In this document: one piece after another, positions 33,710 to 37,189 of the stretch
Position numbering within the stretch: the stretch's first letter is position 1
Layout: each line of letters starts with the position of its first letter
Source: an uncultured Verrucomicrobiae bacterium
GTDB lineage: Bacteria > Verrucomicrobiota > Verrucomicrobiia > Limisphaerales > UBA11358
Length of the DNA stretch: 64,000 bases
Direction: 5' to 3'
Assembly (NCBI GenBank): GCA_963786375.1
Contig: CAWAYP010000001.1
Span: forward strand, 107,169-171,168
Position numbers and translations under genes: made by a program
Notes under the pieces: model-generated
Told to the model about the DNA's origin: nothing
The model's input: the letters and a program-made list of their open reading frames with translations, nothing else
The model's database searches: none

Positions 33710-35782
33710 ATGATTGCGACCAAAGAATCGTTCGAATCCGCACGGGTAGCGCAGGCGTCCCGCCTGTCCGACGACGCGTCGCGCGTCGTTGAATCCGGAC
33801 CCCACAGTTCCGATCAACTGCCCGGCAGCAAACGTGGTTACGTCGAGGGCAAAATCCATCCCGATGTCCGCGTGCCGATGCGCGAAATCGAACTCACGCC
33901 GACCAAAACTTACAGCGGCGCGGTCGAGCAAAATGAGCCGGTGCGCGTCTATGACTGTTCCGGCCCGTGGGGCGATCCGAATTTCAAAGGCAGCGTCGAG
34001 GAAGGTCTGCCCGCGTTGCGGCGCGACTGGATTTTGAAACGCGGCGATGTTCAAGAATCTGACGTCCACGGTCCACAGCCAAGCAACCTGTCGCACACGG
34101 AATTCAAAGCGGAGGCGAAAGTCCACAGTCCACAGTCCACCATCGGTCGCAGAGCGTTGCGCGCCAAGCCCGGAAAAGTGGTGACGCAACTCGCCTATGC
34201 CCGCGCCGGTATCATCACGCCGGAAATGGAATTCATCGCCATCCGCGAGCAAATGAGGGTGGCACAGGCGTCCCGCCTGTCCGCCGATTCGTCCCGAATC
34301 GGCGATCTTTCGCATGACAACGTTCGAAATGATTTGAACAAGCAGCACGCTGGTTCATCACAATTATCCGGGAGCGCACGCGTCTCGCGTGCCATTGAAG
34401 GCGTCCCGCCTTCAACCTCGTTCACACCATCTGTTTTCTCGCGCTTCCCGCAACGCATTCCGGCGGAAATCACCCCCGAATTCGTCCGCAGCGAAGTCGC
34501 CGCCGGTCGCGCCATCATTCCGAACAACCTCAACCATCCCGAGTCCGAGCCGATGATCATCGGGCGCAACTTCCTCGTGAAAATCAACGCCAACATCGGC
34601 AACAGCGCCGTCGCGTCGTCCATCGAGGAGGAAGTCGAGAAGATGCGCTGGGCCACCAAGTGGGGCGCGGACACCGTCATGGACCTGTCCACCGGCAAGA
34701 ACATCCATGCCACGCGCGAATGGATTCTCCGCAACTCGCCCGTGCCCATCGGCACCGTGCCGATTTATCAGGCGCTCGAAAAAGTCGGCGGCAAGGCCGA
34801 GGACCTTACCTGGGAAATTTACCGCGATACCCTCATCGAACAGGCCGAGCAGGGCGTGGATTATTTTACCGTCCACGCCGGCGTGTTGCTGCGTTTCATC
34901 CCGCTCACGGCGCGCCGGATGACCGGCATCGTGTCGCGTGGCGGGTCCATCCTCGCCAAATGGTGCCTCGCGCATCATCAGGAAAATTTCACCTACACCC
35001 ATTGGGACGAAATCTGCGACATCATGGCCGCCTACGACGTTTCGTTCTCCATTGGCGACGGTCTCCGGCCCGGCTCAATTGCCGATGCCAATGACGAGGC
35101 GCAATTCGGCGAACTCCAGGTGCAGGGCGAACTGACCGAGCGCGCGTGGGCCAAGGGCGTGCAGGTGATGAACGAAGGCCCCGGCCATGTGCCGATGCAC
35201 ATGATTGAGGAAAACATGGCCAAGCAGCTCGAATGGTGTCACGAGGCGCCGTTCTACACGCTCGGGCCGCTCACGACCGACATCGCGCCCGGCTACGACC
35301 ACATCACCAGCGGCATCGGCGCGGCGATGATCGGTTGGTATGGCTGCGCGATGCTCTGCTACGTCACGCCCAAGGAACACCTCGGCCTGCCGGACAAGAA
35401 AGACGTGAAAGACGGCGTCATCGCCTACAAGATTGCCGCGCACGCCGCCGATCTGGCCAAGGGCCATCCCGGCGCGCAATACCGCGACAACGCGTTGAGC
35501 AAGGCGCGCTTCGAATTCCGCTGGGAAGATCAATTCAACCTGAGCCTCGACCCCGTGACCGCGCGCGAGTTCCACGACGAAACCCTGCCGCAAGACGGCG
35601 CGAAAACGGCTCATTTTTGCAGCATGTGTGGGCCTCACTTTTGCAGCATGAAAATCACCGAGGACGTCCGCAAATACGCCGCCGAACAAGGCATCGCCGA
35701 GGAAGAGGCGTTGAAGAAAGGCATGGAAGCCAAGTCGAAGGAGTTCGTGGAAAAGGGCGCGGAGGTTTACGCGAAGGCGTAG
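33710..35782 (+). CDS. thiC: phosphomethylpyrimidine synthase
   Basis: [63 protein letters not shown]: canonical long-form ThiC. The N-terminal variable region carries repeat-derived inserts. Confidence 0.95.
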
Positions 35783-35790
35783 TTTCAGAC

Positions 35791-36204
35791 ATGAATTCCG
35801 CTTCGCAAGATTTCCCCCACCATCTTGCCGTGCTGCGTGAGCGGATGCTGCACCCGACGGATTATGAACTGGCGGTGAATTATTTTTTGGAGGAGTTTGC
35901 GGGTGACGCGGCGTTTGTCCGCGCATCGGACCGGGAGCCAATGCCACATCTCGTCGCCGTGCTGGGCAATGTGGTTTCAAAGGCGCTGGGCCGGACTGTT
36001 GAATTGGAAGGCGCGCTGGTGTCGTATCTGCGCGAACACCGGTTTGTCCACGGAAACGCCCAGGCGGACGGGCGCGTTGTATTGTTCTTCTATTTTCAGG
36101 ACGCTGACACGGGCATGGTGATGATCATTCCCGGTATCCGTGGGCAAGGAGATATGGCACGCTTTCATCTCACCGGCGGATTGCCTGATCCGCAACAGAA
36201 TTGA
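35791..36204 (+). CDS. hypothetical protein (cassette 1 downstream of thiC)
   Basis: The ATG lies 8 nt after the thiC stop. 137 aa, in-frame part of ORF-track 35233..36204. No family recognised. Confidence 0.5.
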   Translation: MNSASQDFPHHLAVLRERMLHPTDYELAVNYFLEEFAGDAAFVRASDREPMPHLVAVLGNVVSKALGRTVELEGALVSYLREHRFVHGNAQADGRVVLFFYFQDADTGMVMIIPGIRGQGDMARFHLTGGLPDPQQN

Positions 36205-36212
36205 ATTCAACC

Positions 36213-36234
36213 GGAAGTTTACGCGAAGGCGTAA
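36213..36234 (+). repeat. copy of the last 22 nt of thiC (codes EVYAKA-stop)
   Basis: GGAAGTTTACGCGAAGGCGTAA versus native GGAGGTTTACGCGAAGGCGTAG (35761-35782): 20 of 22 identical. It can fold as TTACGC-gaag-GCGTAA. Confidence 0.8.
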
Positions 36235-36252
36235 ATCTGTTAAACCCCTGTC

Positions 36253-36765
36253 ATGGCAATCAACCCGCCATCCGACAATCTGCCGCTGGCCGACGTGCTG
36301 CGCGCGGCGAACGACTTGGTCGCTGCGAAATTGATTGAAGACTGGGCGCTCGGCGGCGCGTTGGCGGCGATTTATTACGTCGAGCCGTTCACTACTTACG
36401 ACGCGGACATTTTTTTTATTCCCGCTGACAAGGGCTTGACCGCTGGCATCCCGGCTATCTACGCGCATTTGCAAGCGCAAGGCTGGCAGGTCGAGCGCGA
36501 ACATCTTTTGGTGAGTGGATTCCCTGTTCAATTTCTCCCCGCCCACGGATTGACCGAGGAAGCCGTGCGTGAAGCGGAGCGGATTGATTATGAAGGCGTG
36601 CCGGCGAAAGTTTTCCGCGCCGAACATATCGTCGCCATTGCCGCCAGCGTGGGCCGGGCCAAGGACAAGGCGCGCATCGAACTACTCCTCCAGCAGGCCG
36701 ACCTGGACAAAACAAAGTTGGAAAACATCCTACAACGGCATAAATTGAAACTGCCAATGATATGA
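36253..36765 (+). CDS. nucleotidyltransferase-fold protein (cassette 2)
   Basis: [25 protein letters not shown] resembles the G[GS]x9-13[DE]x[DE] minimal NTase motif. 170 aa. The family assignment is tentative. Confidence 0.55.
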
Positions 36766-36893
36766 AACCGGAAATGCGGCAAAAACTCGCGCGCGAACCG
36801 TTTGCGGAAAAAATCCGGAAAGTTGGACAGCTCATTCGTCTGGCAAAAACCTTTCCCCGCCGCGCGGCCAAACCACAGCCCGCCGCCAAATGA
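36762..36893 (+). CDS. small basic hypothetical protein (43 aa)
   Basis: ATGA overlap with the upstream ORF's stop, and its own stop overlaps the ATG of the thiC-tail copy. Hand-translated: [43 protein letters not shown]. Confidence 0.3.
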
Positions 36894-37024
36894 AAATCAC
36901 CGAAGACGTCCGCAAATACGCCGCGGAGCAGGGTTTGGCTGAGGAACAGGCATTGAAAGCCGGGATGGGACAAAAAGCTCGCGAATTTGTGAAAAATGGA
37001 GCAGAAATCTACGCGAAAGCGTGA
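36890..37024 (+). pseudogene. displaced or duplicated thiC 3' end (last 44 codons)
   Basis: [44 protein letters not shown]-stop versus native [44 protein letters not shown]-stop (35648-35782). The first 35 nt are 34/35 identical. Confidence 0.8.
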
Positions 37025-37082
37025 TGAGTCTCTCAACTCTCAACCAACCACACTCAACCAGCGCACAGCGCTTTAAGGCCGC

Positions 37083-37104
37083 AGGGGTTTACGCGCAGGG
37101 GTGA
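37083..37104 (+). repeat. degenerate fourth copy of the thiC tail 22-mer
   Basis: AGGGGTTTACGCGCAGGGGTGA matches the native thiC end at 16 of 22 positions and retains the GTTTACGCG core. Confidence 0.55.
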
Positions 37105-37189
37105 CTCATGGAGTGGGAAAATCGTTCCGCTGTCCACTTACATCGCCCTGCTTCGCGGCATCAACGTTGGTGGCCAGAAGCCCATCAAG

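Follow-up and report, generated by a model that had tools for sequence, protein, structure and literature searches.

The 64,000-nucleotide stretch analyzed here (the window; positions 107,169 to 171,168 of contig CAWAYP010000001.1, assembly GCA_963786375.1) comes from an uncultured Verrucomicrobiae bacterium and contains the housekeeping radical-SAM gene thiC, behind which lies a stack of small cassettes, each closed by a copy of the thiC 3′ end. The evidence described below strongly supports an origin of this cassette stack through repeated replacement of the thiC 3′ end. The features of the stack and its flanks, in window coordinates, are as follows.

33537..33661, plus strand: thiamine pyrophosphate (TPP) riboswitch upstream of thiC (Rfam RF00059, 60.7 bits versus a gathering score of 54.3)
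33710..35782, plus strand: thiC, 690 amino acids (aa), a mosaic of a native body and a foreign A-type last ~135 nucleotides (nt) (Pfam ThiC_Rad_SAM, 3e-184)
35648..35782, plus strand: copy A, the attached thiC tail, an imported allele that now completes thiC
35791..36204, plus strand: orf137, cassette gene (1104 homologue clusters, none with a Pfam domain)
36213..36234, plus strand: tail relic 2, the last 22 nt, 20/22 identical, a former thiC end preceding orf170
36253..36765, plus strand: orf170, MenT1-like nucleotidyltransferase, candidate toxin (Foldseek; 2018 homologue clusters)
36762..36893, plus strand: orf43, basic peptide, candidate partner of orf170 (4-nt overlap with orf170)
36890..37024, plus strand: copy B, the displaced thiC tail of 44 codons, the native allele pushed downstream
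37025..37074, plus strand: non-coding spacer, the native sequel of the B-type tail (comparison with loci L087, L089, and L091)
37075..37104, plus strand: tail relic 4, oldest layer, holding the last ~30 nt of an A-type tail (L087, L089, and L091 have it at the same position)
37133..37675, plus strand: DUF1697 gene flanking the stack (Pfam DUF1697, 5e-36)

Copies of the thiC tail in the window

The terminal 22-mer of thiC recurs at 36213 (20/22 identical), 37003 (15/22), and 37083 (16/22). Read in the frame equivalent to that of thiC, the displaced copies encode EVYAKA, EIYAKA, and GVYAQG, and a stop codon ends each. Relic 4 is the fourth member of a 28-nt repeat family (82%); its repeat-search footprint begins at 37075, and the spacer that precedes it measures 58 nt when counted to the 22-mer at 37083. 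Copies A and B are identical at 98 of 135 positions, with 34 matches in the first 35 nt, and the first five differences are all synonymous third-position changes. The two copies contain neither indels nor stop codons, share 34 of 44 residues, and specify the same conserved ThiC C-terminus. The coordinates, identities, and counts of the tail copies given in a preliminary description of this DNA were all reproduced.

Differences between copies A and B are distributed 8/4/23 over the three codon positions; the proportion of non-synonymous differences (pN) is 0.147 and that of synonymous differences (pS) is 0.73. This strong synonymous excess supports the earlier proposal that the 135-bp copy formerly ended a functional thiC allele. 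The allele is the native one, given the 92.6% identity of the copy to the resident tail of locus L115 and the contiguity of the equivalent tail with thiC in L087. In locus L159, the displaced and attached copies differ at 13/4/70 positions over 166 codons (pN 0.038, pS 0.68), and displaced copies in L116 and L129 exhibit a similar synonymous bias. Judged from these substitution patterns, the displaced copies are former functional alleles and not decayed duplicates.

No 135-nt stretch of the 64 kb other than copy B reaches 60% identity to copy A, which excludes chance similarity, and the 22-mer, allowing at most 3 mismatches, had 0 occurrences in 100 shuffles. The 22-mer is confined to the stack; it is not the generic, genome-wide repetitive extragenic palindromic (REP) element that it might have been. 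An assembly artefact was rejected because the identical arrangement is found in four independent assemblies. Foreign origin could not be argued convincingly from third-position GC or composition, given that GC content is 0.55–0.58 in the cassettes versus 0.60–0.63 in thiC. Across phyla, the last 290 residues of ThiC are 79–93% identical; an exact-protein look-up of the window ThiC returned no record.

The open reading frames (ORFs) of the stack begin 8–18 nt past each tail stop codon. No promoter-like site and no convincing terminator were found on the plus strand between 35782 and 37104, and this, together with the close spacing of the ORFs, makes read-through from the riboswitch-controlled thiC into the stack plausible on sequence grounds.

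Relatives of the locus and layering of the stack

Synteny around thiC is not conserved in the species genomes of GTDB, and a simple empty site was for that reason not to be had from them. A search for tails revealed extra copies downstream of thiC in the verrucomicrobial locus L011 and in four betaproteobacterial loci (L041, L049, L065, and L080). Close relatives were collected by a metagenome scan with the lineage-specific ThiC N-terminus, and frequencies were counted over non-redundant loci with at least 1.5 kb downstream of thiC. These relatives share an upstream FtsX-ABC-MFP-melibiase block and a downstream segment that encodes ArsR-AHSA1 and a cupin; the content in between is variable. 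At least one extra tail is present in 17 of 36 close-relative loci, and right-truncated −599 fragments (negative positions are counted back from the end of thiC) occur in 3 more. Extra tails were found in 1 of 26 and 4 of 45 loci of more distant sets. In the closest Verrucomicrobiota loci, the displaced thiC 3′ fragments range from 22 to 599 nt.

Alignment of the thiC-downstream regions reveals both empty and alternative sites, as the preliminary description had anticipated. In L101 and L161, orf170 directly follows thiC. Positions 3297–4116 of L101 align with window 36212–37022, and the window 22-mer at 36213 corresponds to the end of the intact thiC of L101 and L161; the same junction between a thiC end and orf170 is found in L109, L110, L158, and L170. 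In L087, tail B, the 58-nt spacer, and relic 4 are contiguous with thiC (11857–12074 versus window 36889–37106, 81.7%), and in L089 and L091 the spacer plus relic lies 80 nt after thiC. Other relatives contain additional or different units: L110 carries a Phd/ParE cassette and a 42-nt relic ahead of orf137; in L155, orf170 is preceded by a further cassette and a tail of 118 nt; and in L143, orf137 is followed by a zeta toxin, then a small ORF and a tail of 132 nt. The presence or absence of orf137 is independent of orf170 in L143, L158, L109, L132, and L176. The window cassettes thus assort independently among relatives, which bears out the earlier suggestion of independently acquired mini-cassettes, each bounded by a thiC 3′-end relic.

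Locus L173 has six tail copies, two diverged orf170-orf43 cassettes (87–91% identical), and two cupin cassettes. This region (657–8091 and 11815–12513; also in L172 and L175) holds the largest array seen, and the genes between the tails are DUF4238 plus cupin, orf170-orf43, a 761-aa PD40/Tricorn-like protein, a second orf170-orf43, and DUF2971 plus cupin. At the margin of the fetched region, 5.7 kb past the array, L172 and L173 have a gene for an IS200-type Y1 transposase.

Comparison with resident genes indicates which tail of the window is native. Upstream of about −150, window thiC is closest to L092 and L115 (91–96% identity in the variable stretch from −195 to −165), whereas from about −135 onward identity to these loci falls to 60–67%. 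At the same position, identity to L131, L104, and L144 jumps from 69–84% to 96–100%. The best resident-tail match of copy A is L131, with 96.2% identity over 132 nt compared with about 90% for the gene bodies; the differences comprise 0 non-synonymous and 5 synonymous changes. Copy B, in turn, matches the resident tail of L115. The switch at −135 and the match of copy B to L115 together show that the attached tail A was imported and that tail B is native, with the breakpoint at the duplication boundary. L159 presents a comparable picture: identity to the relatives closest by gene body is 93% for the displaced 499 nt and 82% for the attached part, the allele switch falling at about −450 to −500, near the −502 boundary.

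The stack is layered. In the B-type lineage (L087, L089, L091, and the window), an A-type relic lies 80 nt behind the B tail, which implies an earlier displacement of an A-type end by B, with no more than 58 nt of "cargo" brought along. The order of entry can be reconstructed as follows. The ancestral A-type tail, now relic 4 (37075–37104), is the oldest layer. A B-type tail with its 58-nt spacer then displaced this end, and an A-type tail bearing orf170/orf43 displaced the B tail at −135. Finally, an A-type tail bearing orf137 displaced the prior end at −22, leaving relic 2.

Boundaries, cargo, and models of cassette entry

The preliminary description had proposed site-specific insertion. This part of the proposal was not supported: the left boundaries of displaced copies occupy at least 15 positions (−22, −30, −40, −42 to −50, −63, −72, −87, −99, −121 to −149, −213, −502, and −599), and the position of the identity run depends on the repeat pair. 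The longest identical run of a pair served to approximate the crossover position; a run of at least 20 nt is kept in 13 of 15 repeat pairs, where it lies at the left end, in the middle, or at the right end. The 34/35 block of the window is specific to its pair, and synonymous positions in this part of the gene vary strongly among 49 resident genes. The block from −135 to −100 was accordingly rejected as a universal recognition site; few parts of the last 600 nt have a third-position entropy as high.

Junctions between cargo and tail are constant for each cargo and different between cargoes. The junction orf43|ATGAAAATCACC is identical in all orf170 loci, and in all of them the orf43 stop overlaps the tail ATG (ccaaATGAaaatc). 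Past this junction, the window, L101, and L109 continue with a B-type tail, L170 with one of another type, and L173 with an A-like one. A constant junction followed by a locus-specific tail is expected from a crossover inside the tail at each entry. At loci L087–L166, many tails, both resident and displaced, have a ATCTGNTAAA-like leader in the first ~12 nt after the stop; it adds further in-frame stops, and an unrelated cargo ORF begins 8–10 nt later. The leader may be native thiC 3′ untranslated region carried along by the tail, or it may belong to a recognition site. A possible attC-like core, GTTAAAC after the tail, resembled GTTRRRY and was discarded since the position varies (GTT, GAT, GGT, GCT) among homologous leaders.

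Cargo ORFs were picked by hand, as a simple codon-usage gene caller missed atypical cargo, and were identified by Pfam and PADLOC. Toxin-antitoxin (TA) and related cargo includes Phd/ParE (L011, L041, L092, and L110) and zeta-toxin kinases (L143 and L144). Restriction-modification (RM) cargo comprises an Alw26I-type system (L116), an AccI-type endonuclease with methylase (L154, with a homologue in L156), and an Eco57I-type methylase (L108). Defense-related cargo includes an AAA_21 ATPase that matches the defense candidate HEC-04 (L087), a 1544-aa helicase-nuclease that matches PDC-S37 (L159), and a CAP12-type TIR protein with RNase H (L156); L049 and L065 carry Bro-N proteins.

Mobility genes are lacking. 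None of the 40 cargo proteins scanned, from about 20 arrays, is an integrase, resolvase, or transposase, and no recombinase Pfam match was obtained among orf137, orf170, orf43, DUF1697, ArsR, and AHSA1. The tyrosine-recombinase motif H-x-L-R-H is absent from window ORFs of at least 150 aa and from array-carrying loci; the motif scan agrees with the earlier remark that the window contains no recombinase. In two scans of viral contigs, one in 2.9 million carries a thiC tail. That contig (L168/L169) is the only one with a free-standing thiC 3′ fragment (965–1141, from about −175 to the stop). It represents a 9.4-kb, satellite-like element that encodes a CHC2 primase, a DUF3987 helicase, and a small-terminase-like helix-turn-helix protein, with no integrase on the available sequence. 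A phage or prophage att site was rejected on the basis that this single viral contig has a thiC tail and no integrase on it. Another viral-contig match, L167, proved to be a thiC gene with a different C-terminus beside phage genes and not a free-standing tail.

The same architecture exists at other genes. In L176, aspS (aspartyl-tRNA synthetase, 7476–9134) is followed by a ~378-nt copy of its 3′ end at 11533–11910, about 88–93% identical; the repeat starts 2.8 kb downstream (start to start), with five small ORFs between and a DUF433/PIN pair behind. In L170, a minus-strand gene for 211 aa separates a DUF4256 gene (9343–9900) from a 204-nt copy of the DUF4256 3′ end (89%) within 10571–10894, and this duplication sits inside the thiC-downstream variable region. 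The recurrence at aspS and DUF4256 points to a general process rather than an enzyme specific for thiC.

The varied boundaries, the per-cargo junctions, and the variable position of the identity runs favor a homology-driven process over a fixed-site enzyme. We consider recombinase-independent, homology-driven displacement of the 3′ end the probable mechanism, although the case falls well short of certainty. In this model, each event would import a segment in which a thiC 3′ end is followed by its short 3′ leader and by cargo. Recombination within the thiC tail would join the imported tail to the resident gene and leave the gene intact, while the old tail would become a downstream relic. Flanking tail copies would supply the homology, and an element-encoded recombinase would not be needed for spread between genomes. 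Entry could proceed through excision of a "tail, cargo" circle and a single Campbell-type crossover with thiC, or through a linear double crossover in which thiC and a downstream tail copy serve as arms. New cargo-to-tail junctions would arise by rare illegitimate joining (homology-facilitated illegitimate recombination). Addictive or defensive cargo such as TA, RM, and defense genes would be preferentially retained, because repeat-flanked inserts are otherwise easily lost. The data show the layers, the foreign origin of the attached tail, the polymorphism among relatives, the constant junction of each cargo, and the lack of recombinases; a circular intermediate, recombination of the RecA type, and selection for the cargo are inferred.

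Several findings weigh against this model. The comparisons, which are of species-level metagenome relatives, revealed neither a circular intermediate nor an excision product nor an empty site in the same strain. Arrays are strongly enriched in one clade, as might be so if an enzyme particular to that clade were encoded elsewhere. Four cargo families, betaproteobacterial ones among them, have left boundaries clustered near −135 to −141, and five loci with different cargo have them at −599; these clusters hint at preferred sites. A similar ATCTGNTAAA leader after the tail stop is shared by several unrelated cargoes. Some relics are only 22–46 nt long, and two pairs (L011 and L092) have no identity run above 11 nt. 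Such lengths are too short for efficient RecA recombination, and illegitimate joining or later deletion would have to be invoked.

Some of these points would fit a recombinase that is encoded elsewhere and acts in trans on a core within the thiC tail, in an integron-like or CIME-like manner (CIME, cis-mobilizable element), with the relics in the role of attC or att sites. Small, tightly packed, mostly co-oriented cassettes, each closed by at least the last 22 nt of the tail, would be expected of such a system, and the recurrence of the −135/−141 and −599 boundaries with unrelated cargo, the enrichment in one clade, and the Y1 transposase gene beyond the array in L172 and L173 also count in its favor. 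The breadth of left boundaries and of inferred crossover positions does not, nor does the nature of the separators, which are coding fragments with a signature of purifying selection instead of structured sites. Variation at the GTTRRRY-like position of the leader, cargo and a window devoid of recombinases, and the same architecture with unrelated repeat sequences at aspS and DUF4256 further reduce its appeal, and we regard it as unlikely. Less likely still is a dedicated, undescribed integron-like capture system for which the thiC tail (and the ends of aspS and other genes) would be the attachment site, with the recombinase elsewhere and a core formed by the last ~22 nt plus the ATCTGNTAAA leader. 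Integrase-carrying islands or prophages classically use gene 3′ ends as att sites and typically bring a replacement end with them; the arrays could be decayed members of such elements that targeted the thiC 3′ end and have since lost their integrases and most cargo. The satellite-like viral contig with its primase, DUF3987 helicase, and thiC tail from about −175 is in keeping with this idea. It is nonetheless improbable in view of the retention of an integrase in 0 of about 20 independent arrays, repeats of up to 502–599 nt that far exceed typical att homology, heterogeneous boundaries, and the near absence of thiC tails from the 2.9 million viral contigs.

The tail copies might instead have arisen in situ, by long target duplication at insertion or by tandem duplication of the thiC end, with the downstream copy decaying thereafter. 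Direct repeats around inserts without mobility genes have been described for RM systems (PMC2853133), and some pairs are 91–95% identical (L041, L065, L144, and L155). Copies in the window, L159, L116, and L129, however, differ mainly at synonymous sites and are free of indels and stops; the phylogenetically incongruent copy is the attached one and not the displaced one; and tail B matches resident tails of other lineages. For the window, in-situ duplication is already contradicted, and in general we deem it highly improbable.

Displacement of the thiC end has its closest parallels in rearrangement hotspot (Rhs), contact-dependent inhibition of growth (CDI), and type VI secretion system (T6SS) loci, where recombination in a conserved part of the main gene brings in new 3′ ends together with the genes linked to them and older ends are pushed into an array, without an integrase. 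For Rhs, C-terminal displacement with orphan tips has been proposed to occur by homologous recombination via a circular intermediate (Jackson et al. 2009, PMC2935791); T6SS effector-immunity modules undergo sequential displacement by homology-facilitated illegitimate recombination (Kirchberger et al. 2017, PMC5361080). The hallmark of these loci, an array of displaced 3′ ends behind an intact main gene, is found at thiC, with four tails in the window and up to six in L173. In Rhs, CDI, and T6SS systems, however, the displaced tip is a polymorphic toxin and itself the selected payload. At thiC, a housekeeping radical-SAM gene, the tip is functionally equivalent and acts as a homology handle only, and the cargo consists of unrelated TA, RM, and defense genes. 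A variable toxin tip with a cognate immunity gene is absent, tails A and B having the same ThiC C-terminus.

Insertion with long target duplication of RM systems was reportedly described by Nobusato in 2000. Inserts of this kind have no mobility genes and are flanked by direct repeats of 30 to more than 400 bp that often overlap a gene 3′ end (Furuta et al. 2010, PMC2853133). RM systems are so flanked at thiC in L108, L116, L154, and L156, and comparison of the window with L087, L101, and L161 reveals an insert without mobility genes whose repeats, longer than 30 bp, are single-copy where the insert is absent. Long target duplications are single insertions at scattered loci with near-identical repeats, since the recipient's own target is duplicated, whereas the thiC stack is one recurrent hotspot of stacked layers with heterologous allele repeats (74–90%) and mostly TA or defense cargo. 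Repeats near-identical at birth are not evident in the window, where A and B are 74% identical with synonymous bias and A is incongruent with the gene body.

With integrons and clusters of attC sites lacking integron-integrases (CALINs), the thiC stack shares small, promoterless, co-oriented cassettes that point one way, are closed by repeats, enter at an anchor while older ones move back, and commonly carry TA genes. IntI, attI, and attC structure are all missing, and the separators are coding fragments of variable length. As in CIME accretion by integrative and conjugative elements (ICEs) and in tycheposons, the target gene is made whole by a copy that the element brings, the native end moves downstream, and target-end relics separate tandem elements. 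Those systems use a tyrosine or serine integrase with a fixed crossover; at thiC, none is present and boundaries vary. The stack thus lacks defining features of integrons and of integrase-mediated islands. The searched literature yielded no account of thiC as a cassette hotspot of this kind.

If homology-driven displacement is correct, the end of a conserved housekeeping gene would serve as a portable homology handle. Small TA, RM, and defense cassettes would move between species and pile into an ordered, datable stack without an integrase, transposase, or phage, which would help to explain many "recombinase-less" defense and TA hotspots beside core genes and would extend the displacement principle of Rhs and T6SS loci beyond polymorphic toxins. 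The signature of such hotspots would be right-anchored, 5′-truncated relics of a conserved gene 3′ end with synonymous-biased divergence. Addiction-type genes sit directly behind a riboswitch-controlled operon, which makes thiamine-dependent TA expression a testable idea.

Cassette genes and other features of the locus

Products of orf137 and orf170 are members of widespread "hypothetical" families for which sequence searches of Pfam, NCBIfam, PADLOC, and PDB returned nothing. The AlphaFold2 (AF2) model of orf137 has a predicted local distance difference test score (pLDDT) of 84.5 and no PDB fold match. The gene does not always travel with thiC tails; a homologue in L176 (82%) lies behind topA without a tail relic.

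The model of orf170 is of moderate quality (pLDDT 73). Its best Foldseek match is the MenT1 toxin 8an5_B (E 2e-7, TM 0.64, 23% identity), and the Pfam DUF2204 cut-off is passed by one distant family member only, P0373. Model comparison thus supports a predicted nucleotidyltransferase fold of the MenT/DUF2204 type, in line with the fold assigned to the protein in the preliminary description. The gene for orf43 adjoins orf170 in 7 loci, a conserved pairing, and in every orf170 locus its TGA stop overlaps the ATG of the tail at the position of copy B. Gene order and the structural match make orf170/orf43 a candidate MenT1-like TA pair. As in MenAT1 of M. tuberculosis, a small nucleotidyltransferase of similar size is translationally coupled to a small partner gene; in contrast to MenAT1, there is no sequence-level membership, and the 43-aa partner is downstream and not a recognized MenA. 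Homologues of orf170 are absent from phage records, and one occurs on a plasmid, beside a CopG/RelE pair.

All three ATGs that had been noted behind tail copies, at 35791, 36253, and 37108, are present; the last one, however, is out of frame with DUF1697, whose Pfam match begins at about 37133. The DUF1697 frame contains no ATG, GTG, or TTG between the upstream stop (37025) and 37190, and the same is true of the near-identical contigs L001–L003. One annotation of the gene uses a non-canonical start codon. DUF1697 may be a 5′ frameshifted pseudogene or have an unusual start.

The N-terminal half of thiC contains in-frame palindrome copies at 33744–33783, 34257–34296, and about 34395–34415. The sequence CAGGCGTCCCGCCTG is present twice and the related GAAGGCGTCCCGCCTTC once, with VAQASRLS as the repeated peptide that they specify. 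Behind the thiC stop, L011 and L129 have related palindromes, ACAGGCGACTCGCCTGT (with a variant in L088), and palindromes of the ACAGGCGACTCGCCTGT type are also located within the displaced tails of L101 and L173. Those inside thiC look like a REP-like element tolerated within a coding linker.

Elsewhere in the window (14433–16559), a tandem 880-nt duplication directly follows a tRNA gene (14433–14504). Its units, 14593–15451 and 15486–16362, are 92.5% identical and encode two paralogous proteins with a prepilin-type N-terminal motif on the minus strand.

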